Shown piece after piece: positions 896 to 49,480 of a DNA stretch of 64,000 nucleotides. Made by a program: the position numbers and the translations under genes. This DNA comes from Eledone cirrhosa (Eukaryota). The stretch lies in NCBI GenBank assembly GCA_964016885.1, contig OZ024743.1, positions 152,892,001 through 152,956,000 on the forward strand, read 5' to 3'. Below the pieces are notes generated by a model, which saw only the letters and a program-made list of their open reading frames with translations, had not been told where the DNA came from and did no database searches. How positions within the stretch are numbered: the first letter of the stretch is position 1; the number at the start of each line of letters is the position of its first letter.

Positions 896-2419
896 TATAC
901 ATTACCATGGTTTGGTTTCATATTTGATCCATAATGGATATATTACTTTTGCTACATAATATTCCAGAAAAAAATACCACTGAAATTGTAAGTTAAGTTT
1001 GATAAAATTATTGATTTTTCTTAGCCTTTATGAAGCAGATCTATGATTAGACATTCGAGCTCTAACCAAACTTTTCTGAGATAGTGTCTCTGGGATTATA
1101 TTATCTAATGTATCTTCCTTTTTTAAGAGATTAGGGTGGAATTTAAAAGAAACTTGGAGCAGGTTAAATGACTACAATGTCTTGGGAGTTTATGAAAGTC
1201 ATACATGTGGTATAATTTCTGAAGAGCTATTAGTTTATAAAGTCATGAAAAGATGACAAAAACAATGTCATTCTGGAGAAAAGAGAGAGTGTTTGTTATT
1301 CAGAGTAGTTCTTTGAAGGTAATAAATTTGAGGAGAAACTAAAGCAGTAGAGAAATGTATATAATAAAAGGTTTTCATTGATCCTAGAGTTTATCCAGGG
1401 AGTTTTAGAAGCAGCTGAAAAGATAAAGGATATATCAAACATATTAGTGAGCTGGTAATTATTATCCTTGACACCAGTATTAAGGCCTTAATTTGTGCCT
1501 GACATAAGAAGCTTCTACGTAGCTAAATTGTTTGCCTGTAGGCTCTACCCATTGCTGATGTCATACATTAAACGTTTTCTGTCAGACTTCTTCATTATCA
1601 TGTATGTTGTTATGATTCGTTCCAAACCATATTCTAGCAAAAGTATTTTACCTAGGGGTCTAGTTTGGTTTTCTACAGAGTAATCATCATACCACATTCT
1701 ATTGCTTTTGAAACTAAGCCACACACAGACATTATCCACATGCACCAAAGGCCTCAAGCCAAATTTGCACTATTTTCATAACAGAAACTTTAAAACATTC
1801 ACCATGATGACATGTGAATTTAACCCCTGTTAACCATGTTAAGCGTAAAACAGTACACATATAGAGGAAACAGAGTTGTATTGCACCACCCTTACACATG
1901 TTACTGTATGCAAACACTAGGTTTCAGAATCTAATAAACTCACAGAGTGACTTCCCATTTATAATATTGTCAAAGTTGGCTTTTCTCTTTAGAACCAGAA
2001 GCAGTTGTTATACAAAGCTTAAGTAATACCCATTATACTGGTCCCATATTTTGCACTGTTCTACTGCTGCACATACAAACATTCTAGACTATATTCAAAA
2101 CAAGGCCATTTAGTTGATTGGCAAAAAACTAACATACACACATTGCAGCCACTGGCTACTAAATGTACTGGCTCTTCTGTATAAATTGTCTGTAGTTTCT
2201 ACATGGCCACTGCACTTCTGAATTATCTACTAACATACCACTTCAGATTTCGCTCACTGGATTTTTCTCTCTCTCTCTGTCTTTTCTTTTTCTCTTTATT
2301 CCTACTTCATCTCAGTAAATAGAGCTCCATATTAAACACTATTCAATCATTTAGTTTAAGAGTTGCAATCCTATGCAGTCCCCTCCTCTATTAATGTTTC
2401 TCCTGTTAATATTTACCTA

Positions 2420-4746
2420 GTTTTGTGAGTTTTCTTGACTTTGTGTGCCACATGTTGTAGATAACTAGATCGCGATCATTTGACAGCTCAGCCCATCTTT
2501 TAACACGAACATCCAGCACAGAAAAAAAGAGATAAGAGACAGTAACAAAATAAATGACTGATCTCTGTGCTGATGTCCTTATACCATGTGTACTCATGGC
2601 TGTCGCTGGAAGAAGGTTTTCATAATAGAGAGCCCATTACTAGAACAGATCACTAATAAGGCCTCTCCATTCATATTTATAATGGGATCACTTTTCATTC
2701 CAATCACTCCTTTCAATGTCACCAAACTGGCAGGTGCAGCTTGGCCTACAGGATAAAGTGGGAAGTGCTGGCTGATAAGGAGGTCAGAACCAGATATTGA
2801 ATACCATTACATACAAATTTAGAGAACTCCCAGAGGAAACTCAGGATGTTGAAACAAAGTGGAGACTGTTCAGCTTTTGAATGCTGTGGGAAAAAGTTGC
2901 TTGGTGTAGCACCAGGGGAAAGGAGGATCCCATGGTTCAACCAGCAAATTAAATATGCCATCCAAGCAAAGATGGAGGCTTACAAAGCTTAGCTTGGAAA
3001 TAAGTCCTCCTTTTTGCACTTGTGGTATAAGCAGGTGTAAAAAGTCACTGCAGAGATAAAAAAAAAGGTGTTTCTAGGTGAAGACATGGGAGGATTTGGG
3101 GGTTAAACTGGAATCCGACTTTAGATCAGCAGATAAATTATTCTGGCAGACCACCTGCCAACTTTGTAATAAGAAGTCTCCCTCCATGCATCTGTTCTTC
3201 ACCTCTCTTCAGAAAAGTGCATCCTCATGAGGTGGAGAGAATAATTTGCTGATTCCTATATCCAGTTACAACATCTTCTGATGTACATAAAGTACATCTA
3301 GGGGCAATGACAAACTCCTTGAGGCTGAGGTCACCAGAGAAATTAAAGTGCTCAAATGTGGCAAGGCTTCTGGGGGGGATGACATTTGGATAAAATGTTA
3401 AAAGCCTTACATAAAGAAGGTATTCTCTGGTTGACTCAGGTGTGCTGGTTGGCCTGGATATCTGGAAAGGCACCTAAGCAATAGTAATTGATTTTCAAAA
3501 AGGGAAACAAGAGAGATTGCTCTAATTACAGAGGAATCTCCTTGTTAAATCTCCCCGGTAAAATTTATGCTGCCTGGCAAAGAGATGTATGGATATTGTT
3601 GAGTTCAAGCTAGCTGATGTGCTTTTTTTCCCTTGGATGTAGCACAGCTGACTAAATATTCACACTGCTGCAGAGCTTTGAGAAATCGTGTGAGTTTTGC
3701 CAAGATTTGATGCTTGTTTCATAGACCTTGAAAAGGCGTATGACTGCATTCCATGGGACCTGTTGTGGAAGTTTCTGCAAGAGTATGAAATTGATAGACA
3801 GCTTCTTGTTGCCCTGAAATCCCTATATGAAAACTCTAGTATTTGTGTTCCGATAAATGGTGCTATGTCAAAATCATTCAATGGGGGTATAAGATTCAGC
3901 AACGGTATACTGTCACCTCTCTTGTTCATAATCTTCATGGACAGCATTGACATGTGCAGCCGGGTTGGAAGTGGTTTCAGGATTAGTGGGTGTAGTATCA
4001 GTTGGCTGGAATTTGCAGATGGCAGTGTACTACTTAACTTGGCAGAAGGTGATCTCTGACATGCACTTGATAGGTTTGCTGCTGAGAGCTGCATGGCAGG
4101 AATGAAATTTGTGGTGTGCATTCTATATGTGAGTGGAATTCCACTGAACAGCTGGAGATGTTCAAGTATCTCTGGACAATGTTCACAAGTAAGTGAAGGC
4201 AGGAGGCTGAATTAAGTGCAAGAATTGCAGGACCTACTGCACCAGCTTCATAATTTGGACATCATCAGGTTGCCTTAAAAGCAAAATTTACTGTCTTCCT
4301 TTTGGTATTCATGCCAACCCTTACCTATGGTCATGAATCATGTGTAATGACTGAAAGACTACAATTGTGAATACAAGTGACAGAAATGAAGTTTTTCCAA
4401 AATGAATTTGGAGTAAAGTTACTTGATAGAGCGTGCAGCTTAGAGATCAGGGAGTTGCTACAGGTAGATCCACTATTTCTCTTAATTGAAAGATCACAGC
4501 TCTGATATTTTGGACATGTGGTCAGAATATCTCAGGAAAGAACCATTTGATAGATTTTACAGACAAAATCCAGCCAGCAGGAGACCCTGATCCAGGTGGT
4601 TAGTTAACATCCATGTGTTTCAATGGGTTCACTTCGGGATCTAACCTGATCAATTGGAGACAGTTTGTTCTGCTGGAAATCATGCTTGAAGATTCTGCCC
4701 CAATGACTCTCCCAGCAATATGTGGGCAGAGAAGAATAAGAATAAG
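2420..4746 (+). mobile_element. Expander/Rex3-like RTE LINE, 5'-truncated, with inverted 5' segment (2420-~2715)
   Basis: RT remnants (CSNYRGISLL ~3518; ACFIDLEKAYD, LSPLLFIIFMD, LEFADG in ORF 3697-4059). (AAGAAT)n tail at ~4732-4750. TSD aatatttac(c/t)ta at 2408-2419 and 4747-4758. Confidence 0.85.
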
Positions 4747-5427
4747 AATATTTACTTATGAAAATTCAATCCAAACGTCAAAGGATCTAAAGATGTATTG
4801 GATGTAAACACTTTTCTGATTTGATTACAACATAAAAGTGATGGTCCTTTAATGAGATGATGTCCAGTAGATAATATTTTCAAGAGAATTGTTGAAATGG
4901 TCTTGATATATGTAGCTTGTACTTTCCAGTTGTTCCTAGAAAGTTTAAACTAAAATCATTCACTGAAAATATATGCTATGGGAATTGCTTGAAAGTTGTT
5001 TACATTAACCAGAAAACATCTACTTAAAAAATTTTAAAACTACACTATTGAAAAGAACCCATTATTTTGATGTCTAAGTAGATACAATAAAAGAAATATC
5101 TATAAATACTATATTACCTCATATTCTACTGTTTTCGTCAGCTACAATTACTTATGTGCATATATATATATATATATATAAGGCAATGACTTTAAGGTTG
5201 GATGAAGATATGTAAATAAATAAAAAGCATAATAAACAGTACAAAAAGTATTTTCAGAAAACACTCAAAACACTACATTTCTTTAACCCTTATGGTATTT
5301 CTTTAGCTCAATATATGGTGTTGTAGCATAGCCTTAACCATAATGAGTAAACCTAAAAAAGATCTCTGTCACACACACATACAGACATATAAAGGGAGAA
5401 AGTATGTTCAGAAAGCGGTGAGCGAAA

Positions 5428-5532
5428 GGCTTCGCTGCAATATTTCCTAAATGAAATAGTTTAATAACAGGCTGTATTATACACTACATGGTTAAACTAT
5501 TTTATTCTTTCAAATGTTACAGTGAAGCCTTC
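5428..5532. repeat. Degenerate fold-back next to (TA)n
   Basis: aaggcttcgctgcaatattt...aaatagtttaa pairs with ttaaactattt...aaatgttacagtgaagcctt. Confidence 0.6.
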
Positions 5533-5555
5533 TATTTCAATATATATATATATAT

Positions 5556-5584
5556 CAAACCTCAGCATGCCATTTCTTCTGCTG

Positions 5585-5627
<43 letters not shown>

Positions 5628-8600
5628 CTAACTAACTAACTCTCTCCTCCCCTGTCCCAGCCCAACACACCCTGCCATTATCCCATCACCACTGTTCTTC
5701 TAGCCCTCAATTTCCCTACCGTTATGGATGGATGAGCTGAGAATAAATTTGAGCAACTCTGAATCAATAGATGAAATATGAATCTGCGAGCAACCAAGCC
5801 CCCATGTGAAGCGCCAATCCAGAGACCCTTCCCTACGAGTGTCGACAAATGCCCAAAACTCTGAGTTGGTACCATCAATGTAGGCTCAATGAAAGGAAGA
5901 GCAGGAGAAATCGTAGAAATGCTAGAGCGAAAGGAAATTGATGTATGCTGTGTGCAAGTGACTAGATGGAGAGGAGAGTCTGCCAGAGTCCTTGTAGGAA
6001 AAAGTTGGTGCTACAAATTTTTCTGGGTGGGAAATGACGATGGGATGGGTGGTGTAGGTATACTACTAGCTGACAAGTGGGTAGATAAAGTAATCTCAGT
6101 GTACAGGGTAAATGCAAGAATCATTAAACTCAGACTAGTCCTGAATAAAACAATTACCACAATAATATCAGCTTACGCACCCCAATCGGGCCTGCCAGAC
6201 GAACTTAAGGATAGGTTTTACGAGTCCCTAATGCACACTACTGCTCTAACAGACGACAATGACTTCCTAATCATTGCAGGAGATTTTAACGGACACGTAG
6301 GTAAACACTGCGACGGCTTCAATAGAGTGCATGGAGGCCATGGGGTTGGCACAAGAAATGAGGAAGGATTCAGACTTCTAGAATTCTGCGACGCCAATGA
6401 CATGTCGATATGTAACACAAACTTTAAAAAACCCGACAACTACCTGATCACCTATAGATCAGGGGAGCACTCAAGTCAGATAGATTTTATCCTCATCAGA
6501 GGACGTGACAGATGGACGGTCATAAACACAAAAGCCTTCCCTAGTGAGGAATGTACATCCTAACATAGCCTAGTTGTCAGCGACCTCACGGTCAGAACTA
6601 GACGGACCTGGAAACAGAGGCCAACCTGGAGAAGAAAGATCTGGAAGCTGAAAGACCCTTCAACCAGTAACAGATTTAAGATATTTTACTCAACGCCTAC
6701 GACAGTAAAGAAGAACAGATAGAGACATTCAATGTCGAAGAGAACTGGGAGTTCCTAAAAAAATAATTTACTAGAGGCGACGGATAAGGTCTGTGGCTGG
6801 AGTAAGACTTCAAGCAGGAGGAGAGTGACTTGGTGGTGGAACAATAAGGTAGATGAAGCAGTTAAGGCCAAGAGACATGCATGGAAAGAATGGAAGAACG
6901 GGGGGGGGGGGAGCAGGGTAGATTACATAGAGACCAAGAGGGAAGCTAAGCGACAAGTATACTTAGCTAGGAGGGAAGCAGAGGATAGAAAATTCAAGCA
7001 TGTTTTGCAATGTGAGGACCAGAAACAGGAGGTGTTCAAGATTGCGAGGCAGTGTGTCAGAGAGTTGTGATGTCATTGGAGAGAAGTGTATCCAGAATGA
7101 TAAAGGTGAGCTTGCCCTCACAAGTGCTGAGAAGAAAGATGCATGGAAGAGTCATTATGATAGATTACTAAATGAGGAGAATGCATGGGAAGAAGAGACC
7201 CTACCCCAAGTAGACACTATAGAGGGGCCAGCAGTACAAGTCAACAGCAATGTAGTAAGTAAGGCAATCAAAGATATGAAGAAGGGAAGGCAACCGGTCC
7301 ATCGGGTATAGCTGCCGAGATGCTGAAGGCATCTGGCTCTGTAGGTCACACTATAACCACACGTATTGTTAACCAGGTAATACTAGAAGGTGTCATACCA
7401 AAAGATTGGTGCAGTAGCATCATTGTCAACTGCTACAAAGGTAAAGGTGGTGCACTAGATAGAGGAAACTATAGAGGTATAAAGTTGATGGACCAGGTCA
7501 TGAAAGTAACAGAAAGAGTTATAGCACAGTTGATTAGGGACCGGGTGAAAATAGACGAGATGCAATTTGGGTTTGTACCAGGAAGAGGCACCACTGATGC
7601 CCTCTTCCTAGTGAGGCAGTTACAGGAAAAGTATCTAGCTAAAAGTAAGCCACCCTACTTGGCATTTGTCGACCTTGAGAAAGCCTTTGACAGAGTTCCA
7701 CGTGTTGTAATCTGGTGGGCTCTTAGAAAATTAAGATTAGATGAATGGCTTGTGAAAGCGGTACAAGCCATGTATAGGGGAGCAGTCAGCAAAGTTAGGA
7801 TTAGCAATGAGTATAGCGAGGAATTTAGCGTACAGGTTGGGGTCCACCAGGGCTCTGTTCTTAGCCCTCTCCTGTTCATCATAGTCCTGCAGGCAATAAC
7901 GGAGGAGTTTAAGACCAGATGCCCATGGGAACTCCTGTATGCTGATGACCTCACACTTATAGCTGAATCTATGGTAGAACTAGAGAAGAAATTCCAAACT
8001 TGGAAGCAGGGACTAGAAAGAAAGGGTCTCAAAGTCAACCTGACAAAGACTAAGGTCCTTGTAAGTAGACGAGAAAACAGAACCCAGATCTCCTCAGGGA
8101 AATGGCCTTGCTCAGTATGTAGGAAAGGTGTAGGTAGGAACTCCATTCTCTGCCCCAAATGCAAACAACCGGTACACAAGAGATGTAGCAGGATCTCAGG
8201 AAGCTTAATTAAGAATGTAGGCTTCACATGCAGCAGCTGTGCTGGGACAGCAAGCAGCAAACAGCCACAGGAAACAAGTACCACCAATCTATGGGGGGGG
8301 GGGGCTCTGTAGAAACAGTAGACAGCTTCTGCTACCTAGGTGACCGAATTAGCAGCGGAGGTGGGTGTTCAGAAAGTAGAATAACTAGGGTAAGAACGGG
8401 ATGGAAGAAGTTTAGGGAACTACTACCACTGCTAGCTGCAAAAGGCTTCTCCCTCAGAATGAAAGGCAGACTGTATAATGCGTGTATCCGAACAGCAATG
8501 TTGCATGGTAGTGAGACCTGGGCGCTGAAGGTGAAAGACTTACGTAGATTAGAGAGAAACGAAGCCTGCATGCTCCGATGGATGTGTAACAGTAATATAC

Positions 8601-9198
8601 GTGAACGACAAAGCATAAATGAATTGAGAGAGAGACTGAGCATAAGAGGAATCAAATGCTGTGTGGAGGAGAGGCGGCTGCGTTGGTATGGACATGTGAT
8701 GCGTATGAAGGATGACAGCTGCATAAAAAGGTGCAGAGCACTAGAAGTCGATGGAAACCACGGAGTGGGATGACCCAAGATGACCTGGGATGAGGTGATA
8801 AAAGCCGACCTTACCCAATTACACCTCTCAAAGGCAATGACACACGACCGTGACCTCTGGCGTCACGCAGTAATACAGAGTACCATGGGTACAAGCTGAA
8901 GCATATAGACAATATGCACCCCCCCCCCACCCCCACCGCAAGGTGGTCGTGGAGATGCCACGGCAAAAAAGCACACAGCCCACACTGTAAATTGGACGTG
9001 TAGGCGCCACGAAAAAGCACCCAGCACTCACTGTAAATGAGGTTGGTGTTAGGAAGGGCATCCAGCTGTAGAAATCAAGCCAAATCAGTTCCTATATGAG
9101 CAAAGCATGGTCAGTTGACCAGACACTGCCCACAACAGGACAAGCCGTCTAACCCATGCTAGCGTGGAAGAACGGACGTAAAACGGTGATGATGATAT
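5556..9198 (+). mobile_element. Near full-length RTE-clade LINE (~3.6 kb), inactivated
   Basis: APE, RT and C-terminus in order. (TAC)n in the 5' region; 3' UTR with ggaagggcatccagctgtagaaa and a (GAT)n tail; microsatellites on both flanks. Confidence 0.93.
5860..8880 (+). pseudogene. RTE ORF (APE endonuclease + reverse transcriptase + PHD-type finger), broken by stops and frameshifts
   Basis: GTINVGSMKG, SAYAPQ, AGDFNGHVG, SQIDFIL (5889-6563); NYRGIKL, QFGF, FVDLEKAFDRV, HQGSVLSPLLF, YADD (7320-8312); FCYLGD, RRLRWYGHVMRM (8228-8773). Stop at 6561-6563 and a poly-G frameshift near 8293-8304. Confidence 0.93.
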
Positions 9199-9549
9199 GT
9201 GTGTGTGTGCGTGTGTGTATGTATGTATATATATATATATGCATATAAAGTCTGCAGTACTGAGACCGAGGAGAGCACTAATCATGAGAGTACGTAATGC
9301 ATGAAGAGATGGAGAGTAGGATTTTAACCATCTATCTATTCTGTCTGATATAGAGGAAGTTGTGTGCCAGTCACGCTGGTAAGTTTTTGTCTTTTATTTA
9401 TAAAAAACAAAAATTATTGTTTTAAAAAAATATACCACTATATAGATTGACCCTCTGACATAAAAATGTATAACAATTTGTTGTAACTATGAATGATAAA
9501 ATTAAAGCGTTTCCCCGCCATAAATGTAAATGAGAGCGTTGAAATGAAT

Positions 9550-9563
9550 GTCACTATGGCAAC
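9550..9563. promoter_or_regulatory. RFX X-box-like motif GTCACTATGGCAAC
   Basis: Matches the X-box consensus GTHNYY-AT-RRNAAC; an E2F/YY1-like ttccccgccat lies at ~9511. Motif match only. Confidence 0.3.
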
Positions 9564-9656
9564 AGGTAGTGACTGAGATAAATCACACCAAAACAAAAGT
9601 ATGGAAACACATACGGCACAAAAATTATTGAACAAGAGAAAAACACAACTTCACAA

Positions 9657-11337
9657 ATGAATTCCACAACCGCAAATCAAGCAATTGAGAACTACAAAAA
9701 CAACAACAACGACAACAATGACAACAACAACAACAACAGCAACAATGATGACAACAACACCAACAGCAGCAACAGTAATGACAACAACACCTACAAGAAC
9801 AACTCCACAAACAAGGTAAAAAGGTTTAGGTCACACAAACTGTCCAAAAGACAGAACTATATACACAGATTGACATCTCTAATGCCGGAGAATTGTTAAG
9901 AGATGCCAAGCAATATATAACTTTTGGGGAGATTGGCGCTTTTAGCATCACTTCTCCCCAAGAATTGCGTAGAGACACTGTCCTGAAAACTATAGTTTTC
10001 AGGACAATCTCAAATACCACCAGAAAACCAGCTCAATTAACTCAAAACGAAATTGAGCTGGTTCTAAGAAACTCCATGAAGGACATTGCCTTCATACAGA
10101 AGGGAAAACTCTTCGGGAGTTTATCAATAATAATGAAAGAGCAGATGACGTCACAGAAATATTCTATGTCACCAATTGTGTCCCCCCTCTACACCTTTTC
10201 CCCCACATATATGGGAAAAAGGACCCCAAAAATAAGAGTAGCAAATATCACACCAAATGTAAATATCTGGTTGATATTAGCTGGTTTCATGAATTTTGAT
10301 GAAGACACAGTAATTTCGGTAGGAAAGTCCTCCAGGGGCACATTTAACGGTACAAGCTTAGAAGTTCTGGTCCAAATGAGACCAGAACGGATAGCTAGAA
10401 TACCACAATGTGTGCCTCTGGATGGAAATTCCTACATAAACATTTCTGTTGAGAGTAGGCAGCCTTCATGTTATCAATGTTTAAGCACTGGTCACTTGAG
10501 GGCTTCCTGTCCTCAATTAACTGCATAAAAAAAGGCACTACTGCCAACATCCAACACAACAACACAACCACCACCACAACAACAACACACAAAAATAACA
10601 AAAACAAACCAAACTGCAAACACAGTACCACCCAACCCCTCCCTACCTAAAACAACTCCCAAAACACCCACAAGCACAACAGCTCCCCAAAACGTACCCC
10701 TCCCCAATCAAATAGACACCACAACGGACGAAGCCCCCTCGTCATCATTCAGTGAGGATGAGGGAGAACCCCTCCGCTCAAAAAAAAAAGAAAAAAGGCA
10801 ACAAACACACAACCACCAACACAAACAACACAAACATTACAAACAAAAATCCCCCCCCCCCCGAAAACAAAACAATGACAACACTCCAAACACAAATACC
10901 CACAACAAAACGAAAATACACACAAGAACAGAAAAAAACTAACACAACACAACAAAAATATTATACATACATAAACACTGACAATAAAATCTTGATGGAG
11001 GTCATCTCCAAAACCCTTCCGTGGAAACCGAAGGAAAATATTTTACCAAATGTAAAAACAAACCTAATTTAAGGATGATTAGGGTCCCTACGGACACCTA
11101 TAAGTCCTTAAAGGAAAACTTTGCTGAGAACCTGGGGAGTATGTGTGTTAAACCAACGAACAGCGTCCTCTTGAGACGTTTCCCCATCCACACCGCAGAC
11201 ACCCCCACCCTACCAGACACCCCCTCCCCACCAAACATCTCCGTCCCCACCACGCCAGGAACCACCACCCTACCAAACAACCCCTCCAATACCCCATGGA
11301 CATTGTGCAGCCTGGTCTCCAGGAAGTGAGGAGGTAA
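9657..11337 (+). pseudogene. Gag-like ORF1 of a Tx1/L1-clade LINE (frameshifted)
   Basis: CCHC knuckle CYQCLSTGHLRASC (C-x2-C-x4-H-x4-C) in ORF 9893-10528; Asn/Thr/Pro low-complexity segments; probable stop ...aggaggtaa just before ORF2. Confidence 0.75.
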
Positions 11338-11378
11338 GTGAATTCTTTCCTCTTCTTGTGTAACTCTTCCTCACCAAC

Positions 11379-13645
11379 ATGGCCGATATAAAAGTCGGAT
11401 GTGTGAATGTGCGCGGCCTAGGGATGCCCTAGAAACAGGGAAAACTCTTAAACGACCTCAGGTCGCACAGTATGGATGTAATTGCTATCTGTGAGTCCTG
11501 GATCCACAGCTAGCGACAGTTGGCTCCCATCTTCGATGATTATGAGATCTACGCATCTCAATGTCAGCCGGGAAGTGGGGAGGGGTTGCCGTTTTGCTGA
11601 GGAAACACCTGGGCCTCGTAACACAGACGGTACATCTGGACCCGGAGGGTAGACTGGTGGTCCTAGACGTTGACGGTAGTGAAGGTGGAGCCTTCAGGCT
11701 GGTGGCCGCATATGCCCCATCCGGGATTCCGCGGCCAGACTTTTCTGGGGATGTCCCGCTCCTTGCCTTTAGTGGGGGACTGGAATGGAATTCTAGATGC
11801 ACGTTGGGACTATGTGGGAGCATGCCCCGATAAAGGGGGTGTAACAGCCTCAAACAGTTAATCGGCCGATTTGACCTGGCCGATAGATATCGACTAGATT
11901 TTCCGACTGTGCCACTGTGGACGTGGACTAATCGTAGCGGAACATCTAGATCGTACCTAGATAGGGTTCTAGTTAGAAATAAGGATAGGGACATGTTAAG
12001 CGGTCCACAAATGTTCATGGTTGCCTATTCAGATCACAAACTAGTGACCTGCAGGGTCAACCTTGATAGAACCCATACACAAGGACCCGGCTACTGGAAG
12101 CGATCTACTGAAACTGGCAGCAGAACGGGAGAATTTCCAGTTTTGTGACCAGGGGCGTAGTCACACTAGTCAGGAAGACGAGAATAAGCGGGAAGACATA
12201 GGCAACTTCCGGCACATAACTCTGCTAAACACAGAGTTACAGATTTTGGCCAAAGGTGTTGGCAAAGAGGCTGGCGCTTGTCGTCGAAAACCTGGTGGGA
12301 GAAGCGCACACATGCGCAATCCCGACCAGGTCCATACACAACTACCTCCACCCCATGCGATACATCATAGAGAGGGTAGGGTGTAAACCCGACTTCGGTG
12401 GGGCCCTGATCAGCTTGGATCAGTCTAAGGCTTTCGATAGGGTTGACCATCATTACCTGGATGCAGTGCTCGAGGCGGCAGGCTTCGGACCTGTGTTCAG
12501 GGGCTGGATTGCTGCAATGCACAACAGCAACATCTGCTCAAGGGTCAAGGTGAACGGCTACCTCTTGGATCTGTTCCATATCACGCGATCCATTTGACAG
12601 GGATGCCCTCTCGCCTCCCTTCTGTACATACTGACTCTCGAGCCAGTACTACAGAAGTTGGAGCTATTGCAGGGCATCCCTCTGGAACCGGGACTGCGGA
12701 AAGCGGCATCGGCTCACGCCGACGACGTGACAGTAATTGAGTTGAGCACCTCAAAAATCGGAAGTTGGCGCCTTACTGAAGGAATACGAAAGTTTCACAG
12801 GAGTGAAGCTGAACCGGTACAAGTCCATCGGTTTGCAACTCGGATCGTGGAGAGGCAAACCGATGCCTTCTGATCGTCGGACGCTGGACAGAAGGACCTG
12901 TAAAGCTGCTCGGGGTCTGGTTTCATCTGGACCTCCAGGTGGAGAAGAACTGGTACAAGAGTGACGGCCAAGGTGTTTGCACTCACCCACTTTTATAGCG
13001 TCCGTCATCTACTACCGCTTGACCGTCATGCCTTGTCCAGCCAAAACGCTCACCAAAATGGAGCGCGCGCTCTTCCAATTCCTTTGGTGAGAAGATCCAT
13101 CTGCTGCCAACACCCTTTTAACGGAGGGCTGGAGATGCCGTGGTTGATGATGCACAAACACGCGTTCAGGCTGCGGCATCTCTACGTATTCCTCACCGGT
13201 GTGGGCCCCGTTCGTGAGGCGGGCTTTCCCACGACTCGTCTCGCTGACCGAGCTGCAGTCCTGGATCAAGCAAAGACCAAGGAAAATGGGCGACTGGCAC
13301 ATCGAATGTTTTCAGGTACTCACAGCCCTCTGGCAGGCAGACCCGGCGATCAGTGGAAACTCCATTTTGTCATTCTATAGAGGGTTGATCCACAGCAAGT
13401 GTGACGACGCGCTCGGAGAACCTCTAGGCGTAGAGGAAGACGAACTTGCCAGTCTGTTCGGTAGGACCTTCCGCCCGGGACCGATGGACAACTTCCAAAA
13501 GTCCCTGGCCTGGGAGTGCTAGTGAGGAGCTCTACCAGTTTGAGACAAGCTCTACAGACATGGGCGCCCGAGCAGGGAACCTTCGAAAAAGATCTGTCTG
13601 AGATGCGTGCGTGACGAAGAAACCGTCGCGCACGCATTCATACAC
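11379..13645 (+). pseudogene. Tx1/L1-clade ORF2 (APE-RT-zinc finger), internally deleted and 3'-truncated
   Basis: MADIKVGCVNVRGL at 11379; GDWN, SYLDRVLV, SDHKLV, GPGYWK; NFRHITLLNTE, LDQSKAFDRVDH, QGCPL, AHADDV; CLRCVRDEETVAHAF at ~13594-13640. Confidence 0.88.
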
Positions 13646-13669
13646 GTCTTTTATTATTCAAAAATCTTC

Positions 13670-14030: not shown

Positions 14031-14473
14031 CCTACGCCTTACTGCTATTGCATTGGAACCTTCTGCCAACTTAACCTGTGACTTTCTCTTTCACATTTAC
14101 TCTAAAAGGCCCAAACAGAGGAGTATGAAAAGAAGGGCCTCAACAATATTTCTATGAACAATGCACGTAGACAGCTAAACTGTACTTTCAACTTCTTAAT
14201 TTTCTCCAAATAAAACAAAGTTTCCTGTCGGTATATCTTCGTGAGTTTTTAACAGGCACTCACAAATAAACGTTTCTCATTGGAGGTGCTATTACCAATG
14301 TTCTTACCCATCCAATGCTGGGATACACTGCAAGTTATCATTATTTGTACAAATATATAATGTATATAATGCTGAAACCAGCATTGTAAATAAATTAATG
14401 TTTTGATATTTCACTGAAAAAATCTCTTCAACATTTTCTACTGAAAAAATCTTTTTCCTTTCTACTATTTATT

Positions 14474-14504
<31 letters not shown>

Positions 14505-32673: not shown

Positions 32674-33347
32674 TTGCAGTCAATAATGGAGGAGTTTAAG
32701 ATCGGATGCCCATGGGAACTCCTATATGCGGATGATCTCGCACTTATAGCTGAATCTATGGTGGAACTAGAGAAGAAATTCCAAACATGGAAACAGGGAC
32801 TATAAGGAAGGGGTCTCAAAGTTAACCTGACAAAGACTAAGGTCCTTGTAAGTAGACGAGAAAACAGAACCCAGATCCTCTCAGGGAAATGGCCTTGTTC
32901 AGTATGTAGGAAAGGTGTAGGTAGGAACTCCTTCCTCTGCCCCAAATGCAAACAATGGGTACACAAGAGATGTAGTGGGATCTCAGGAAGCTTAACTAAG
33001 AATGTAGGCACAGCAAGCAGCAAACGGCCACAGGAAACAGGCACCGCCAAACTCTGGGAGGGCTCTGTAGACAGTTTCTGCTACCTAGGTAACCGAATTA
33101 GCAATGGAGGTGGGTGTTCGGAAAGGACAATACTTGGGTAAGAATGGGATGGAAGAAGTTCAGAGAGCTATTGTCACTGCTAGCTGCAAAAGGCTTTTCC
33201 CTCAAAATGGAAGGCAGACTGTATGATGCGTGTATACGAATTTCAATGTTACATGGTAGTGAGACCTGGGCGCTGTCTGTAGAAGACTTGCGTAGATTAG
33301 AAAGAAACGAAGCCTGCATGCTCTGATGGATGCGTAATAGTAATATA
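32670..33347 (+). mobile_element. RTE fragment, left part of a copy split by a nested insertion
   Basis: Close to 7880-8600 (WELLYADD...); stops at agtaatatac. Confidence 0.9.
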
Positions 33348-35620
33348 CATCATCATCATCATCATCATCATCATTGTTTAACGTCTATCTTCCACGCTAG
33401 CATGGGTTTAGACGGGAATTGTACCACTTGAAGCAAGATTGGTTGTCTTGCTCGTGTAGGACTGTCTGGCAGGTTTTCTACGACTGGATGTCCTTCCTAA
33501 CACCAACCACGTTTACAGTGTGGACTAGGAGATTTTTACCGTATTACCTACACGGCCACATTACAGTATGGACTGTGTGTTTTTTTGTTGTGACACATAC
33601 ACAACCTCATTTATTTAGGACTGGATGTTGTGGTACCAACATAACTTTACATCGAAAGGGGTCGTGTAAATGGAGGTGGGGGTAGGGGTAGTGGGATGGG
33701 GGTGTATTTTGGTTAAGAGGTGCCTACTGACTGTAGGTTATGCTTTGTACTTAGGCAATGCGGGTTTTCTGTATTACTGTGAAGCGCCAAAGATCTCGGT
33801 CTAGTGACATTGTCTTGGAGAGGTGTAAGTGTGTAAGGTCGGAATTTATCAAATTGTCCCAGGTTTTTCTGGGCTGCCTACTCCGTAGCTACCGTCTATT
33901 TTGATCGCCCTGCACTTTTTTATACAGCTGTCGTTTTTCATGCGCATCACGTAACCATACCAACGTAGTCTTCTCTCAAGTAAACAGCATCTGATCCCTC
34001 TTATCCCTAATTTCTCACTTAGTTCATTAATGCTTTGCCGTTCATATATTACTATTACACATCCAACAGAGCATGCAAGCTTTGTTCCTCTCCAGTCTGT
34101 GTAGATCCTCTGCACACAATGTCCATGTCCCACTGCCATGTAACATTGCTGTTTGTATGCAGGCATCATACAGCCTGCCTTTCCTTTTTAGAGAGAAACC
34201 TTTAGCGGCCAATATTGATATAAGCTCTCTGAACTTTTCCATCCCGTTCTGTCTCCAGCTACTGTACTTTCAGAGCACCCTCCACCACTGCTGATTTTGT
34301 CACCCAGGTAACGGAAAGTGTCCACTATTTCTATAGAACCATCTGGGCAATGGAAGGAGCTAGTATCCTGTGGGCACTTGCTACTACTTATTGCACCTGA
34401 GCACCGGCCACATATAAAATCTATGTTCTTAGTTAGCTTACCTGTGATCCCACTACATCTTTTATGCACCCATACTCCTTTCCTACACACTGAGCATGGC
34501 CATTTCCCAGAAGGGACCAGTGCCCTATTTTCCTTCCTACATACTAGAACTTTAGTGTTAGACAAGTTAATTTTAAGGCCTTTTGATTCTAGGCCATACT
34601 TCCATGTTTGGAATTTCTTCTCTAATTCAGCCATTGACTCAGCTATGAGCGTTAGATCATCTGCGTATAGAAGTTCCCATTTGCAGCTGGTCTTGAACTC
34701 CTCTGTTACAGCCTGAAGGGCAATAATAAATAGGAGGGGGCTAATGATAGAGCCCTGATGAACACCAACTTTTACGCTAAACTCTTCACTATATTTGTTG
34801 TTAATTCTAACCTTACTGACTGTTTCTTTATACATGGATTGTATAGCTCTCACAAGCCATTCATCAACACCTAGTTTTCTAAGAGCCCACCAGATAATGG
34901 GGCGTGGGACTCTGTCAAAGGCTTTTTCCAAGTCAACAAAAGCTAAGTATAGGGGTTTACATTTAGCTAGGTACTTCTCCTGTAGTTGTCATACAAAGAA
35001 AAGAGCGTCTGTGGTACTTTTATCTGACACAAACCCGAACTGCATTTCATCTAGCTCAATTCGCTGATTAGTTGTGCTATTACTTTTTCTGTGAACTTCA
35101 TGACCTGGTCAATTAATTTAATGCCTCTATATCTTCCCCTATCTAGGGCATCTCCTTTACCCTTGTAGCAGTTAATGATGATGCTTCTACACCATTCTGT
35201 ATGACTTGGTTTACTATCCAGGTGACCATAGTGTGCCCCACCGTTCCAGATGCTTTCAACATTTCAGCAACTATTTCCAAAGGCCCAGCCGCCTTGCCTG
35301 TCTTCTTATCTTTGATTGCCTTACTTATTATACTACCTTCAACTTGCACTGCTGGTCCCTCTATTGGATCGATGTGTGGGAGACTGTCTTTCTCCCATTT
35401 ATTCTCCCCATTTAGTAGCCTTTCGTAGTGACACTTCCAAGCTACCTTCTTATCAGCATCAGTGATGGCAAGTACACCATCATCATTATGGACACACTTC
35501 TCCCAAACAATATCACGGTTTTCCTTGACACATTGCCTAGAAATCCTGAACCCCTCACGTTTTTGGTCCTCGCGTTGTAGAAAATGCTTGAACTTTCTTT
35601 CCTCTGCTTCCCTTCTTGCG
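33348..35620 (-). mobile_element. 5'-truncated RTE LINE nested in another RTE
   Basis: ORFs 35143-35637, 34188-34931 (EKAFDRV, HQGS, YADD) and 33849-34169; 3' UTR and (GAT)n tail at 33348-33375. Confidence 0.92.
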
Positions 35621-36200
35621 AAGTACGCGAACGGCAAAGCATAAACGAATTGAGAGAGAGACTGAGCTTAAGAGGAAACAAATGCTGCATGCAGGAGAGG
35701 AGGTTGCATTGGTATGGACATGTGATGCGTATGAAGGATGACAGCTGCATAAAAATATGCAGAGCACTAGAAGTCGATGGAAGCCATGGAGTGGGGAGAC
35801 ACAAGAAGACCTGGGATGAGGTGATAAAAGCCAACCGTACCCAATTGCACCTCTCAATGACGATGACACACAACCATGACCTCTGGCGTCACGCAGTAAT
35901 ACAGAAGACCCGACTTCCTATGGGTACAAGCCAAAGCTGAAGCATATAGACAATATGCCCCCACCCAGTCCACACTGTAAATTGGTCGTGGAGGTGCCAC
36001 AGAAAAAAAGCACCCAGCACTCACTGTAAATGAGGTTGGTATTAGGAAGGGCATCCAGCTGTAGAAATCAAGTCAGAATCAGTTCCCATATGAGCAAGAC
36101 AAGGTCAGCCGACTGGACACTGCCCACAACAGGACAACCCGTCTAAACCATGCTAGTGTGGAAGAACGGACGTAAAACGGTGATGATTATGATGATGGTG
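35621..36200 (+). mobile_element. RTE fragment, right part of the split copy, with 3' UTR
   Basis: Resumes at tacgcgaacggcaaagcataaacgaa; colinear with 8598-9198. Confidence 0.9.
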
Positions 36201-36202
36201 GT

Positions 36203-36500
36203 ATATACTTGGGGAGGGTCATATTGCCAGAAATAATAACAGAACATACTTGCTGTTTGGTTTGGTTTTCGCTTTTGTAAATTTTATATCTCCATAGTTA
36301 ATTTATTTGTCAATCAATGTTTATCCTTGATTGACCAACGGTTAACAATACAGATATAAATATATATATATAGTCTATTAAAGTTCTTTTGCCACACATC
36401 TGTGACATCATCAGTGGTACTATTATGTTTCCTCCCATTGTATTGTAATGCCTATGCCATTTTTTTTTAATTAATCAATTTATTTATTTTGTCTCTGTCT
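36203..36500 (-). mobile_element. Second copy of the Penelope-like terminal region
   Basis: Aligns with 30660-30970; carries CTGATGA t gtcaca-gatg-tgtggc aaaa on the minus strand. Confidence 0.7.
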
Positions 36501-39500: not shown

Positions 39501-39621
39501 ATTAAAAGATGATGATTTTCCCAGAATTAACAACAGAGGAGATATAATTCTATTTAAAATTCAATTACTTATCTACACTTTTAATTACATTGTGTTGAAG
39601 AAAGAGAAACTTAATGACTAA

Positions 39622-39737
39622 AGAAGGATTATTATCTGAGAAGAACAAATGAGATAACCATGTAGAATTTCCCATCCAGAAGGATTATTATCTAAGAAGA
39701 ACCAAATGAGCTAACCATGTAGAATTTCCCATCCAGA
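39622..39737. repeat. Tandem duplication, ~56-bp period, 2 copies
   Basis: agaaggattattatct(g/a)agaagaac...catgtagaatttcccatccaga twice. Confidence 0.9.
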
Positions 39738-40524
39738 TATATGAGAAAGTTCTTTCAACAAGTTTGAATTGACAAAAAGAATCTTGTAATCTAACAAATT
39801 ATAACTCCCTTACTATTTTGAATCTTTATTTATTTATTGTTTTTTTTTTACATGACTTAGTTTATGGAGGAACAGCAAAGATCATAGCCTTTTGTTTGGC
39901 CTTCAAGACTGGTTGGAAGAAGTAACACTCAGGCTGGAGAATAAGAGCAATGGATTAAGTTAACTACACAATAACAGAAACCACCTTTCCAATAGACTTC
40001 TACATAATTTCTATTTAGCAAGTCTTGCAGTGATATTGAACCCATAACTAATATTTGCAAAGTAAACAATCACTCAACCAGGCCTGTACCTAGTCATTGT
40101 GTAAATAATTATCTCATAGGGCTCATAGGCAGGGCTAGAACTTAACTAGTGTTTACATACAAGCCTACTCTAGATAAGGTAACATTCTCAGATGACCTGG
40201 TACCTACTGCTGATATGTAGATAAACTGAGGTGTGTAGAATTACGTTTATTACCCTAATATACAACAAAACACCTACATTGAAATTGGACACTTGGGGGG
40301 CGTTAATGTTTAACACCATATTTACTCAGCCATTTCCCATTTAACCATTTATAATATTAGTACTTATATTACTGACCCTTTCTTAAGGTCAGAAAAGCAA
40401 AGTTGACACAGGTGGAATCTGAACTCAGAATAATGAAGGAATAAACTAAACACAAGCATTTATTCTAGTCTTCTAACATTTTCCAAATCCAATTAATTTT
40501 TCTTTTATATCTTGAGCAAGAGCC

Positions 40525-40720
40525 TTTACATGATCCCTTGACTTGATTGAATTAGTAGCCTAATCTTTATCAAACAACATCTTACTGCCTTAAAAAAAGG
40601 AAGCACACATTAAATGATGTAGTCATAGACATATTGTGTATAAAAAAGACAAGATTGGAAGAGTTTTAAGCACAGGTCAACTCAATTAAGGATGACCTGT
40701 GGCTAAACAACAACTACAAC
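40525..40720 (+). repeat. Old ~200-bp dispersed repeat ending ggctaaacaacaac (representative copy)
   Basis: Similar segments near 1020, 17570, 18390, 18590, 19770, 26540, 38640, 41300, 53290, 53900 and 55700. Confidence 0.6.
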
Positions 40721-43370: not shown

Positions 43371-45000
43371 AGCTTTGTAATCCTTCTTCTTTGCTTGGGT
43401 GGCATCTTTGACCTTTTGATTGAACCAAGGAGTCCTCCTGCAAAGCAGTGCCACACCAAACCTCTTTCCCCTGCAGCCTTTCGCAGCTGAAGCAGAAACT
43501 GCTGCATCAACAATCTTCACTCTGTCTTAATGTCCTCAGTTTCCTCAGAAAGTTCTCTTAATTTAGATGCAATAGTATCTGACTTCATTATCCACCAATG
43601 TTTCCTACTTTATCCTGTAGGTCACCCTGGACCTGCCAGTTTTGTGGGCTTCCTTGGTTTTAGTTAGTCTCAAGTTGCAGAGTAGCTAGATGGGGATCAG
43701 TTGACAGCTTTACCTCTCTCTTAACACATACATCCAGCAAAGAATCAAAGAGATCAGAGACAATAACAAAATCAATTATTGATCTCTGACCCTGATTGCT
43801 CTTATACCATGTATATCTATAGTACTATTGCTAGATGTTCATAATAGAGAGTCCATTGCTAGAACAAAAGTCGAGTAAACCTCTCCATTCGTATTTAGAT
43901 TCGGATTACCATTCCTTCCAATCTCTCCTTTCCATGTCAGTTTGTCAGTGCCAACATGTACATTGTAGTCTCCCATCAAGATATATGACTCAGTCTTAAC
44001 TACATTTAATGATGCAGTGATTTTATCAAGGAAAGACCAATATTTGGACTCCTTGTTTGGTGCATAAATGTGTACCACCCGGAGAGACCTATCTTTCTGC
44101 TTAAGCTTCAAGTGGCAAATCCTCCCTCCTAAGGAATCCAGTCCATAACTCATTCTGACAGCCGGGGGCTAGTGAGTATCCCCACTCCTGCCTGTGCAGT
44201 CCTTTCTTGCATCACACCTGAATAGTTGAGTTCCCATCCTCCATCCAAATCTACAGTAGCAGAGCCACGGAACTTTGTGGAGGACACCCTGACTATATCT
44301 AGCCAATAGCATCTAGCCTCTTCCATATGTTCCTGATCCTTACCTGTAAGGGTTGTGATGTTCCAAGTTCCAACTGTTAAGGTTTTATCCCTTCTGGAGC
44401 ATCTTTTGTGTTTTGGGATATGCAATCTTTGCGCATCCATCCCACACCTCCCAGGATAAGTCACAGGCTCATTGCTATTGTTTAGAGCATAAAATGGCAA
44501 CTGCAATATATTATATGAACAGGCCTCTCTACCTAAGGCCTGGACATGTCCCTTGTTGGCTCATATTGCAGTTTGAGTTTCAGTGGTCTTATTTGCATAG
44601 TCACCAATCTTGTACTTTTTCAAACCTGCAAAGACTAGGCTTTTTTAGAGGCAGCCCTTACTCTCCTCATCATAGCTACATAACTGGGTTGTGAGAGTTT
44701 TCACGAGAGCTACAGGTGTCACCCATTGCTCCATCTCACCTAGTAGTATAGTGCTATTGGTCCGGGGTAACTTACTCATTCAGCAGTTGCCAACTTATAT
44801 CACAACTAGCCATCATATATTGTGGTTGTATCACTATAAGCCACCTTTGACATGTTCTCTATCAGACCAGCTCTTGCACTTGTGGTACAAACAGGCATGA
44901 AGAATCACAGCAGAGACAGTAAAGGCGTCCAAAGTTAAGACTTGGGAGGACATTAGGGTTAAGCTGGATTCCACCTTCAGATCAGCAAATAAAGAACATT
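43371..45000. mobile_element. Expander/Rex3-like RTE: inverted 5' part with APE (43371-~44860, -) joined to a forward part (44871-45000, +)
   Basis: VGTWNITTLTGKDQE...AQAGVGILTSPRL (ORF 44150-44506); IYAPN, MGDYNVHVG (ORF 43839-44153); the forward piece matches 3010-3140. Confidence 0.8.
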
Positions 45001-45067
45001 GATTCGACTCTATATCTATATAAAATATCCAGATGAATTTTATGCCACATCTATAAAACGTGTAAAA

Positions 45068-46503
45068 CTATAGGAGCATTGAGTTACTTGTCCAGGTCAT
45101 GAAAGTCACAGAAAGAGTTATTACTCAACTGATTAGAGACCGAATTGATCTAGACGAAATGCAGTTTGGGTTTGTGCCAGGTAAAAGCACCACGGATGTT
45201 CCTTTCCTTATACAGCAACTACAGAAGATGCACCGAGCTAAAAGAAAACCCCTCTACTTAGATTTTGTTGACTTGGAGAAACCCTTTGACAGAGTCCTAC
45301 ACACTAGAATCTGGTGGGCTCTTAGAAAACTAGGAGTAGATGAATGTCTTGTGAGAGTATACAAACCATGTATAGAGGAACAGTCAGCAAGGTTAGAATT
45401 AACAATGAATATAGTGACGAATTTAGCGTAATAGTAGGGGTTCACCAGGGCTCTGTCCTTAGCCCCTCCTCTTTATTATTGTCCTACAGGCTATAACAGA
45501 AGGGTTTAAGACAGGCTGCCATTTGGAACTTTTATATGCAGATGATCTAACTCTCATAGCTGAATCCATGGCTGAATTAGAGAAGTTCTAAACATGGAAG
45601 CATGCCTAGAATCAAAAAGCCTTAGAGTTAACTTGTCTAAGACTAAAGTTCTAGTATGTAGAAAGGAGAAGAGGGCACAGGTGCCCTCTGGCAAATGACC
45701 ATGCTCAGTGTGTAAGAAAGGAGTAGGTAGAAATTCCATTCTATGTCCCAAATAAAAACTATGGGTACATAAAAGATATAGTGGGGTCGCAGGTAAGCTA
45801 TCTAAGAATGTAGATTTTGTATGTGGCCAATGCTCAGGTGCAGTAAGTAGCAAGGACCCACTGGATACTAGTTTCTCCTTCAACTGCCAAGATGTTTCTA
45901 TAGAAATAGTAGACACTTTCCGTTACCTGGGTGACAAAATCAGCAGTGGAGGAGCGTGTTGTGGAGAGGAGATTATTTGGTATGGCCATGTGATGTGTAT
46001 GAAGGATGACAGCCGTATAAAAAAGTGCAGAGCAATGAAAATTGATGGAAGCTACGGAGTGAGTAGACCAAGAAATACCTGGGACAAGGTGATAAAAACT
46101 GACCTTGCTCACTTACACCTCTCTAAGATAATGTCACTGGATCGAGATCTTTGGCACCATGCAGTTGTACAGAACACCCACCTTCCACCAACCTACAGTC
46201 AGTAGGCACTTCTTAAACCAATATATACCCCACCTCAGACACACTGCCCCATCCACTCTGTTGGTGACACAACAAAAAGCACTCTGTCCACACTGGAAAG
46301 TGGTCATGTAGGAGACAGTAAAAAGGCTCCCAGTCTTAGAAAGGGCATCCAGCCATAGGAAACCTGCCAGAGATACCTTCGTACGAGTGAGACACGGTCT
46401 CCCGACCAATCCCGCATCAAATGGAACAAAACTGTCTAACCCATGCTAACGTGGAAGATGGACGTTAAACAATGATGGTGATGATGATGATGATGATGAT
46501 GAT
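45068..46503 (+). mobile_element. RTE LINE fragment (RT, PHD finger, internal deletion at ~45960, 3' UTR, (GAT)n)
   Basis: ORF 45099-45431 has QFGF and FVDLEKPFDRV; colinear with 7470-9198. Confidence 0.9.
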
Positions 46504-47904
46504 ATATATGTGTGTGTGTGTGTATACATACATACAGTTAGATCTATTGATAGCAACTATTCCTTTTGCTAGTTTCAAGAATAGAAATGGCATTTTGTAG
46601 GTCAAATGTAGAGAAGAAATTTGTTTCTGCCATTCCAGAAAATATAGCAACAGCTTGGAATATGTGTTACTTTTGAAATTTAAGTGGTCTTTGTAATCTG
46701 CACACATTCTAAATGACTTTCATCTCGCTTTCTTATCCACACCACAAATTATGCTTCCTGCGTGATCAATCACACAATGATTACTTAACTATTAACTTAA
46801 AAATGGGAAAGAAATTCAGTATACTCTGGATCATTACATGCAAGACTAGTTATGTAACCATTCAAAATGAGTAGATAATTATTAATGTTAGCTCGCTCAA
46901 AATATACCGTATACCGTGATATAAAATGTTCCCTCCAATTAATCCAAGGTCAAATGGAGATTCTTTGATACAAATTTCTGTTTCATAACCATATTAACAA
47001 TCACAGTTCCTTTTACTTTCAATATTGAATTGTCATAAGCTGTTAAATTTTTGACTGATAATTTAATTTCGATCTGATTGAACAACAAAGGAATATAGAA
47101 TAGCTGAACAAGATGCTCCACTAAATATTTTCATTTGAATTGGAAAATTATTCAATTTACGGTTGATACCTTTAACATAACCTATTTCAATGTCATTGAC
47201 ATCGTGCATGGAGACATTAAAACTTCATTGGTATTGTGCAGAGGCTCTGACTGCCAACATTGAGAAAGTGACTTTGCATTCCACACTTATAAAGCAATAA
47301 TGTGAATGTTGGACACTCCCTTTATTTGTGTCTTCCACCATAATTATGTGAGTTATTAATATTGCTGTTATTGGGAATGGTATTGCTCAACCAAGGTTTT
47401 ATTGTTGTTATGATAAGAACTGTTCTTCACTGATGATTGTTTTCAATTTAGCAAGTGGTATTTTGCAATGTATTGTTGTTGCTAATGATGTTAATTCTCT
47501 AGATCCTAAATCTGGATAATTGTGAATGGAATGCAACACGTTTATTTCTATGTCTACAGGATAGAATCCTGATAGGAAAATCAGTTTAATTATATCTTGC
47601 TCAATATTTTCCTTAATTTGATTCAATTTACAAATGGCTGCTTGTGAATTTATTAAAATAAAATCATTTATAAAGTTTTAAAATGAAAATAAGGTGATTT
47701 ATTGACTCATAGTCACGTTGCTTGGTTTCTAGTAATCTTAAGCTATCAACTATTATTTTATCTTTTAATTAGCTTCTCTGTCGATTCTTCATCTGAAAGT
47801 ATGTGACATCTTTAATATTTGAAAAGAAAAACAATTTTGAAAATGTTCTTATTAGCCTCAACACTGCAGAATATTAAAAATAAAAGTCTATTTTTTCTTT
47901 AAAT

Positions 47905-49480
47905 TCTTCTTTTTCATCCACTTATTCCTGCGAGGCTCATGGGGGTAGAGTACTATAAAAAAAGACCCATCTGAAATTGGTGCAGCTGGATCCATAGGTA
48001 AGACCTTCAGAGTTCATGGATATTATATAACCATCTTAATTGTGGTCTCCAATTGGGTCTCCTGCAATTTGGTTTTGCTCATAAAATCTGCCCAGCAATT
48101 CTTTCCTTAGACATTCTAACTAGATATTCATAGTAGTCGAGCTGTAATCTCTTGGTTCAAAGAAGTAATGACTTTACCAGGAGCAACTCCCTGATCTTTG
48201 ATTCACTCACACTGTCGAGTTATGTTACTCTAAAGACCCTCCAGATGAACCTTGTTTCGGCTGCTTGTATTTGTGATCATATTCTTTCAGTCATTATCCA
48301 TAGTTAAGGGTAGACACAAATGCTGAATTGAAGATAGTGAATTTGGCTTTTGTATCTATCTCTATTCTTCCAGCAAATTCCAGCTGAATGATCCCAACAA
48401 CCGTTGGTCTTGACATCCTTTCCAATTTGGTTGCATATGTCAATCCTGTGAGGTGACAGTACGCACTCTTAGTTGTCTTACACCCATATTGAATGGGTTT
48501 TGACTTAGCATCATTTATCCAAACACAATTATTAGGGAATTCATATAGATAGGGATTTCAAGGCAAAAAGATGCTGTCCATTGATCCAATACTCCTGCAG
48601 AAACTTTCACAAAAAAAAAACAACAACAAGGAACAAGGTTATATGCCTTTCTGAGGTATTTAAAACAAGCATACACCTCTTGCCAATACTACCTTGATTT
48701 CTCGAAGATCTTCTGCAGTGTAAATATTTGGTCAACTGTGCATCAGTTAGTTGAACTCAACACTGTCTCTATATCTCTTTGCCAGGCACTTAACATAGAC
48801 TTTACCTGGGTAGCTTAATAAGGTGATCCATATATAATTAGACAATCTCTCTTGACTCTTGTTTTGAAAATTGGGATTATCAATCCTGATTGCCATTGCT
48901 TAGATGCCTTTCCAGAGATCCAGGCCAGCCACTGTATATGAGTCAGCCAGGGAATACATTCTCTATTTAAGGCTTTTGGACCAAATTCCATCTTCTCCAA
49001 AAGGCCTTATCTCATGTGAGTTCTTTTACTTCTCTGATGATCTCAGCCTCTGAGAGGTCAGTCATTGCTCCAAGATATACCTCATGTACATCAAACAACA
49101 TCCATAAATATAAATGGTATAAAGAAATTGTAGACAGAGATCAGTAACTGATTTTTTAAAATTGTTTCTTATATCTTTTATTATGTGTTGAACGCTTGTG
49201 TTAAGAGAGGGGCTAAACTGAGATTACCTAAAGCAAGAAAACCCACAAAACTGGTAGATCCATCTAGACCTGCAAAATAAAGTGAAAGTGCTGACATTAG
49301 AGGACTTTGGGGTTAAGCTTGAATCCAACTTTGGATGACCAATTAAAGTGTTCTGGCAAACTATCTGCTGACTTCATAATAAGAAGTTCCCCTCCACGTC
49401 TAGGGTTCTTCTCTTTGAAAAGAGGTGCTTTCTTACAAGTTGGAGAGAATACTTTGCTGATCTCCTATATCTAATTATAT
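47905..49480 (-). mobile_element. Expander/Rex3-like RTE: RT body on minus (49090-47905) with inverted 5' segment on plus (49095-49480)
   Basis: WQSGLIIPIFK...RDC (ORF 48815-49000); the plus-strand piece matches the EN C-terminus and 3090-3270. Confidence 0.75.

Follow-up and report, generated by a model that had tools for sequence, protein, structure and literature searches.

Introduction

Insertions of the mammalian long interspersed element (LINE) L1 can carry an inverted 5′ part, and Ostertag and Kazazian (2001) is the work reportedly cited for such twin-primed copies. Outside mammalian L1, hardly any inversions of this kind have been described, and little is understood of the second half of LINE integration, in which the second strand is nicked and the 5′ end is joined. 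In the portions of the L1 literature on which we draw, inverted human and chimpanzee copies consist of an inverted piece followed by a forward piece inside one target-site duplication (TSD), with microhomology at the inner junction (PMC2912911, PMC12016303). The cited parts of a cross-family assay of de novo insertions (Yamaguchi et al. 2014, PMC4245944) report that, apart from one Nimb insert, inversions arose solely from L1 in human cells, attribute them to L1 and host features together, tie them to TSDs of 10–20 bp and suggest that an overhang of ~5 nt is too short to prime; the elements named there as assayed (L1, ZfL2-1 and Nimb-2_DR) include no RTE element. Here we describe the same arrangement in a Rex3-like, RTE-type LINE of Eledone cirrhosa, found in all three of its copies in a 64,000-nt stretch of contig OZ024743.1 (positions 152,892,001–152,956,000; the whole stretch is called the window) and in a third of the long genomic copies of the family.

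Our literature search turned up no RTE family for which 5′ inversions are described, and an earlier description may exist, some central papers lying beyond the reach of the search. Term look-ups in main-text passages of PMC6007223, PMC4476161, PMC13295347, PMC5389967, PMC13174262, PMC3747384, PMC13282606 and PMC9115989 gave no RTE 5′ inversion either. The mechanism itself is known, and what we add is an inversion rate at the level of an RTE family, set against control families of the same host. An inverting single-ORF (open reading frame) element beside non-inverting RTE families of the same host separates the effects of the element from those of the host, and this family contrast makes the idea that overhang length matters testable. 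It is relevant also to repeat annotation, in which a copy of this type is broken up into two insertions, and to gene-insertion tools based on RTEs.

Results

Inverted copies in the window

The window contains three copies of the family and no others, each with an inverted 5′ piece, so that the twin-priming-type structures which a preliminary description had reported for all three Expander/Rex3-like copies were recovered where it had placed them. Element positions (el) refer to a 3,450-nt alignment reference assembled from genomic copies. Copy 1 is bounded on the left by a 12-nt TSD (2408–2419, plus strand), the final base of which is common to the inverted piece (2419–2721, minus strand, el 1283 to 973, subfamily B). 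The forward piece (2720–4746, plus strand) runs from el 1275 through a decayed reverse transcriptase (RT) to a GAA/GAATAA tail and is followed by the right TSD (4747–4758, plus strand, 12 nt), which differs from the left one by one mismatch; the duplication is the one described earlier. On the element the two pieces overlap by 9 nt, and the inner junction has 2 nt of microhomology. Self-comparison of the window showed that copy 2 is unbroken across the copy 1 breakpoint, with 2419–2721 matching 43638–43939 on the same strand and 2720–2989 matching 43646–43371 on the opposite strand, and the inversion in copy 1 is therefore independent of the reference.

The inverted piece of copy 2 (43371–44874, minus strand, subfamily A) extends from el 1561 to the 5′ end of the element and covers the 5′ untranslated region and the endonuclease region. 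It meets the forward piece (44872–44994, plus strand, el 1584–1706) with 3 nt of microhomology, and the element gap between the two measures 22 nt, close to the ~20 bases first reported. In copy 3, the forward piece (47891–49093, minus strand, el 1867 to the tail, subfamily B) lacks el 2634–2934, and the inverted piece (49098–~49480, plus strand) joins el 1096–1315 to el 1643–~1851, with an internal deletion of el 1315–1643; as described, its plus-strand piece ends just upstream of the start of the minus-strand body, at an element gap of ~10–23 nt. In 3/3 copies, then, the inverted piece has its outer end 9–23 element bases from the point at which the forward piece starts. The three inversions are independent events, as had been proposed, because their breakpoints differ and copies 1 and 3 belong to subfamily B and copy 2 to subfamily A. 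At the inversion rate measured for long copies the chance of finding 3/3 inverted is 0.037, and we take the window as a fortunate sample of a rate that is truly high.

Inversion rate in the family and in co-resident families

Two anchors in the middle of the element served to sample genomic copies, of which the best matches were taken with 3.6–4 kb on each side. Among copies covering such an anchor, for which the rate holds, 12/39 were inverted in set A (all non-self matches of the first anchor) and 13/36 in set B (37 further matches, one segmental duplicate dropped), giving 25/75 in total (33%; 95% interval 24–45%), or 18/75 when the gap was limited to ≤100 nt. This long-copy rate is of the order of the 18–31% given for L1 in the cited parts of PMC2912911 and PMC12016303. 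Two complex copies, L099 (3757–5384) and L103 (3339–4443), whose internal inversions and multiple deletions are not explained by simple twin priming, were scored as not inverted. A further 29 protein-anchored loci with flanks of only 1.5 kb, yielding four clear inversions and one doubtful one, were kept outside the rate, and the four clear cases entered the junction statistics.

Control families were anchored at a similar distance from the 3′ end as the test family. No inversion was seen in a young family of RTE elements bearing a PHD domain (PHD-RTE; 0/36, from 39 matches with three tandem duplicates dropped), in an older PHD-RTE family (0/39) or in an L1/Tx1-like family (0/19, mostly near full length; 20 of 39 matches were taken and 19 aligned to the twentieth). 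The difference is significant against both PHD families pooled (Fisher p = 5e-9) and against the older one alone (p = 7e-6). An automatic rule flagged 4/39 of the older PHD copies as inverted; these flags arose from a microsatellite flank in the reference and disappeared after trimming. The anchors of the two PHD sets lie in the window, one in a young, non-inverted copy (5554–9200, plus strand) and the other in a 5′-truncated older copy directly after the stub of copy 2 (45066–46500, plus strand). No PHD-RTE copy in the window has a comparable inversion, in agreement with the preliminary description. A head-to-head pair at 35624/35625 was considered as a 5′ inversion and rejected as a nested insertion: within 32675–36207, a minus-strand PHD-RTE (33343–35625) sits inside a plus-strand PHD-RTE of a different subfamily (32675–33348, resuming at 35624), and the nest imitates a head-to-head inversion.

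The same comparison bears on the idea that small genomic inversions, accumulating in an old family, turned ordinary 5′-truncated copies around after insertion. In favor of this idea, the test family exceeds both PHD controls in age and has acquired numerous later deletions, yet the older PHD family, whose divergence is about two thirds as large, remains without a single inversion. In addition, one breakpoint of each later inversion would have to hit the 5′ edge of the element inside the TSD every time with no flank carried along, and only 3 tail-to-tail junctions were found beside 38 head-to-head ones. We consider later inversion very unlikely.

Both pieces derive from one insertion

For the analysis of junctions, 36 were kept after setting aside L099 (complex) and L197 (a 39-nt piece). 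Of the 19 inverted copies that retain an intact tail, 8 have a single direct repeat of 9–15 nt around the two pieces together, compared to a null of 0.6% in 340 cross-pairings. The two pieces of a copy are correlated in divergence (rho = 0.60, n = 33, p = 2e-4), and their subfamily, assigned from 69 diagnostic sites that separate the two subfamilies, agrees in 31/32 loci, with inversions present in both A and B. The preliminary description had looked to separate TSDs, to pieces of different subfamilies and to a low genome-wide inversion frequency as signs against its reading; what we find is one TSD around both pieces in 8/19 testable copies, subfamily agreement in nearly all loci and, among long copies, 25/75 inverted compared to 0/75 in the two co-resident PHD-RTE families.

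These features also address whether two separate insertions, placed head to head or nested, could produce the pattern. True head-to-head nestings do occur in the PHD families (the window pair at 35624/35625; L136, L151, L260 and L274), but there the second piece has its own 3′ end, whereas the inverted piece of the test family never carries a tail, ends near the start of the forward piece and shares with it subfamily, divergence and a single TSD. Separate insertions are refuted for the eight TSD-enclosed copies, and as a general explanation they are extremely unlikely. Two loci hold pairs of independent 5′-inverted copies lying next to each other, 73 bp apart in L232 (2921–6171) and ~2 kb apart in L091 (3693–7460).

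Junction structure

In 16/36 junctions (44%), the inverted piece has its outer end ≤20 nt from the start of the forward piece, with an overlap in 7 of them; for human L1, the cited part of PMC12016303 gives 46% and 41% for these two measures (gap or overlap ≤20 nt, and overlaps). This end lies within 100 nt in 26/36, and the full range extends from −206 to +1515 nt. At the inner junction, after 10 unclear junctions had been dropped, microhomology of at least 2 nt was found in 14/27 clean junctions and of at least 3 nt in 10/27, where random joins give 16% and 5%, respectively. Microhomology at the outer junction was measured from TSD-defined ends, since alignment ends cannot show it by construction. 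Within these few cases, the TSD 3′ end and the RNA at the site of internal priming agree over at least 1 nt in 5/8 (p = 0.03) and over 2 nt in 3/8 (p = 0.015), with a pairing of 0 nt in 3/8 TSD-enclosed copies; the inverted piece starts at the TSD 3′ end in 6/8, with an offset of −3 to +2. Breakpoints are spread over el 293–3235, and the element has no long inverted repeat that would account for them. Forward pieces measure 107–2,438 nt, and 6/36 inverted pieces reach the 5′ end of the element, which is sharp across copies; forward pieces as short as 107 nt and inverted pieces that run to the 5′ end are both points of difference from L1. In five loci (L105, L115, L122, L124 and L125), copies with internal deletions and differing 5′ ends resume near el 3240–3253, a position that is possibly a site of template jumping or splicing.

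Assembly error at repeats was considered as a source of the junctions. Among the listed contigs from three public runs of one sample none bridges the copy 1 junction; these contigs break in repeats, and none contradicts the junction. However, copies of the family differ from one another by 12–30% and are hence easy to place, and misassembly would not yield TSDs, microhomology, L1-like gap sizes and specificity for one family. The 97–98% identical PHD family, which is the hardest to assemble, shows no inversions. The probability of such an artifact is close to negligible.

Probable twin priming during insertion

Twin priming during insertion is, with high probability, the best reading of the inverted 5′ pieces. 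The preliminary description had taken their geometry as the signature of this process, and the rate, the common TSD, the junction microhomology, the shared subfamily and divergence and the restriction to one family all support it; the step from structure to process is inferred by way of the L1 model, as set out in the cited part of PMC2912911. According to this scheme, the endonuclease would nick both target strands 9–15 nt apart. The first target end would prime cDNA synthesis at the (GAA)n tail, and the second end would pair with the same RNA just upstream of the point where the first cDNA stops and be extended toward the RNA 5′ end, which the second cDNA would reach in 6/36 cases. The two cDNAs would then be joined via 1–6 common bases, and the small gaps and overlaps would originate at the internal priming point. 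More tentatively, the test family may invert where the PHD-RTEs do not, since the stagger of its cut would provide a primer of greater length.

A structure of the same shape could also arise by another route at the time of insertion, in which, once the first strand is made, a template switch or fold-back by one polymerase or by host repair takes the place of priming on the RNA by the second target end. The modest outer pairing, with 0 nt in 3/8, would suit such a route, as would the common occurrence of large gaps (564–1515 nt) and of internal deletions inside inverted pieces and the internal inversions of L099 and L103. On the other hand, the inverted piece starts at the TSD 3′ end in most TSD-enclosed copies, its start tracks that of the forward piece, as in L1, and the inverted pieces that run to the sharp 5′ end of the RNA are expected with an RNA template. 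We therefore regard this route as improbable and favor twin priming.

Several observations weigh against this interpretation or narrow its reach. Structure alone does not separate twin priming from another insertion-time route of the same shape, and pairing at the outer junction falls short of that in L1, for which the cited part of PMC2912911 gives microhomology in 95% of cases. Seven of the 25 inverted copies have a gap of >100 nt or a 206-nt overlap. Because the copies are 7–20% diverged from the reference, the TSD is unreadable in 11/19 copies and 10/38 junctions are unreadable; many subfamily calls rest on 1–4 sites, and the one disagreeing locus rests on one. In the window, the forward piece of copy 2 is only 123 nt long, and everything after el 1706 is absent from the window, so that this copy is not scorable for a TSD; around the two pieces of copy 3 there is no TSD above chance. 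The PHD controls are younger than the test family, with a median distance from the reference of 1.8% and 6.6% compared to 9.3–10.5%. Most copies of the family are short 3′ stubs, to which the high rate of the long copies does not carry over: distinct 3′-anchored copies, most of them <700 nt, were inverted in only 2/28 cases and ~11 short bystander pieces in 823 kb in none, which together put the rate per insertion at ~5% (2/~39; interval 1–17%). In contrast to L1, the 33% is thus conditional on the mid-element anchor and comes nearer 5% over all insertions. As to generality, metagenome loci of more distant relatives showed an opposite-strand coding piece in 0/30 cases (~12 distinct insertions).

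TSD length and the overhang

The inverted copies, with TSDs of 9–15 nt, fall within the long-TSD pattern linked to inversion in the cited parts of PMC4245944, and TSDs in the young PHD family, which does not invert, are mostly shorter or absent. In that family (n = 39), in which good preservation of TSDs would be expected, exact repeats of 4–8 nt were found in 10/39 copies, one copy has a clear 16-nt TSD, about half show nothing clear, and a few longer TSD-like matches lie in microsatellites. Only the 6–8-nt duplications exceed chance and the 4–5-nt class does not, which weighs against the reading; in the older PHD family no TSD length class is clearly above chance. Copies of the young family (L062–L090, L130–L165; median 1.8% from the reference) often lie in AT/AC microsatellites with short or no TSDs. 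The pattern fits the overhang idea as a correlation across two families, the test family and the young PHD family.

A broader proposal, which we advance tentatively and which could well prove wrong, is that twin priming is not a speciality of L1 in mammals; any LINE might gain it once its endonuclease leaves a long enough stagger, and the cut geometry of the element would decide, not ORF1p, poly(A) or host repair. If so, this genome would be a natural experiment in which an ORF1-less, non-poly(A) RTE inverts at L1-like rates in two subfamilies and short-TSD RTE families of the same host were never inverted.

Identity of the element

The family comprises thousands of copies in the 3.0-Gb assembly (2,235–4,591 candidates per query). 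No copy among 150 protein matches is intact, the longest open frame being 338 amino acids, and the family is old and looks dead. Its single ORF encodes an apurinic/apyrimidinic (AP) endonuclease and an RT, with no ORF1 and no long terminal repeat (LTR). A Pfam scan detected RVT_1 in natural copies and gave no match for the endonuclease piece of the window itself. The reference aligns end to end with proteins of 987–1049 amino acids carrying PF14529/PF03372 and PF00078 (59–67% identity), and the nearest of these are unnamed. Identity is 49–53% to bdelloid rotifer proteins, 45–55% to the killifish protein P0081, which we take to belong to the Rex3/Expander-type RTE group, and no more than 36% to the RT of the PHD-bearing RTE in the same genome. 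A kinship with Expander is likewise our presumption.

The ORF stops 6 nt before the (GAA)n tail, and TSDs of 7–17 nt were above threshold in 15/78 copies of the family (null 1.3%). By sequence criteria, namely a single ORF with AP endonuclease and RT, a short tandem-repeat tail and TSDs in the RTE range of 7–15 bp (PMC6007223, cited in part), the family belongs with the RTE clade. L1 criteria do not apply, as the 3.45-kb element combines a single RTE-type ORF with a (GAA)n tail in place of ORF1 plus ORF2 and poly(A), in a non-mammalian host. With Rex3/Expander-type RTEs of teleosts, as characterized in the cited part of PMC6274825, it shares endonuclease and RT in one ORF, the lack of an LTR and a stop near GAA repeats. 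Rex3 itself is defined there by a (GAA)2(GATG)n tail with the stop 3 nt upstream; here the GATG repeats are absent and the stop lies 6 nt upstream, so that the family is classed from its sequence as Rex3-like and not as Rex3. The earlier label "Expander/Rex3-like" accordingly holds as a resemblance, and the strict Rex3 tail signature is lacking. An Rfam search over the element 5′ end (L126 2650–3100, E up to 1) gave no match, ribozymes included, and 218 pieces showed no significant A-to-G editing skew (best p = 0.009, uncorrected).

Other elements in the window and sampled loci

Tandem arrays derived from the elements themselves were seen in several sampled loci: ~24 copies of a LINE-derived 65-bp unit (el 3154–3224) in L205 (4779–6274), an array made from pieces of the LINE itself in L193 (2120–2234), and an array of PHD-RTE pieces with a ~49-bp unit in L258 (411–2070). 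The L1/Tx1-like family (L339–L358) is ~6 kb long and mostly near full length, with head-to-tail tandem copies in L347, L349, L352, L353 and L354; an L1/Tx1-like element in the window (9830–13645) has a ~670-bp deletion at 12087–12101. Decayed ORF pieces at 23220–25754 (plus strand), from one of which a scan gave no Pfam match, presumably represent a LINE with a restriction-like endonuclease, judging from their motifs. An open frame of 376 amino acids at 58791–59921 (minus strand) looks to us like a DNA-transposon transposase. Finally, a 198-bp unit that is present as three near-identical copies in tandem at 50183–50788, and whose body recurs at 51123–52017 and 56858–57051, is probably a short interspersed element (SINE).

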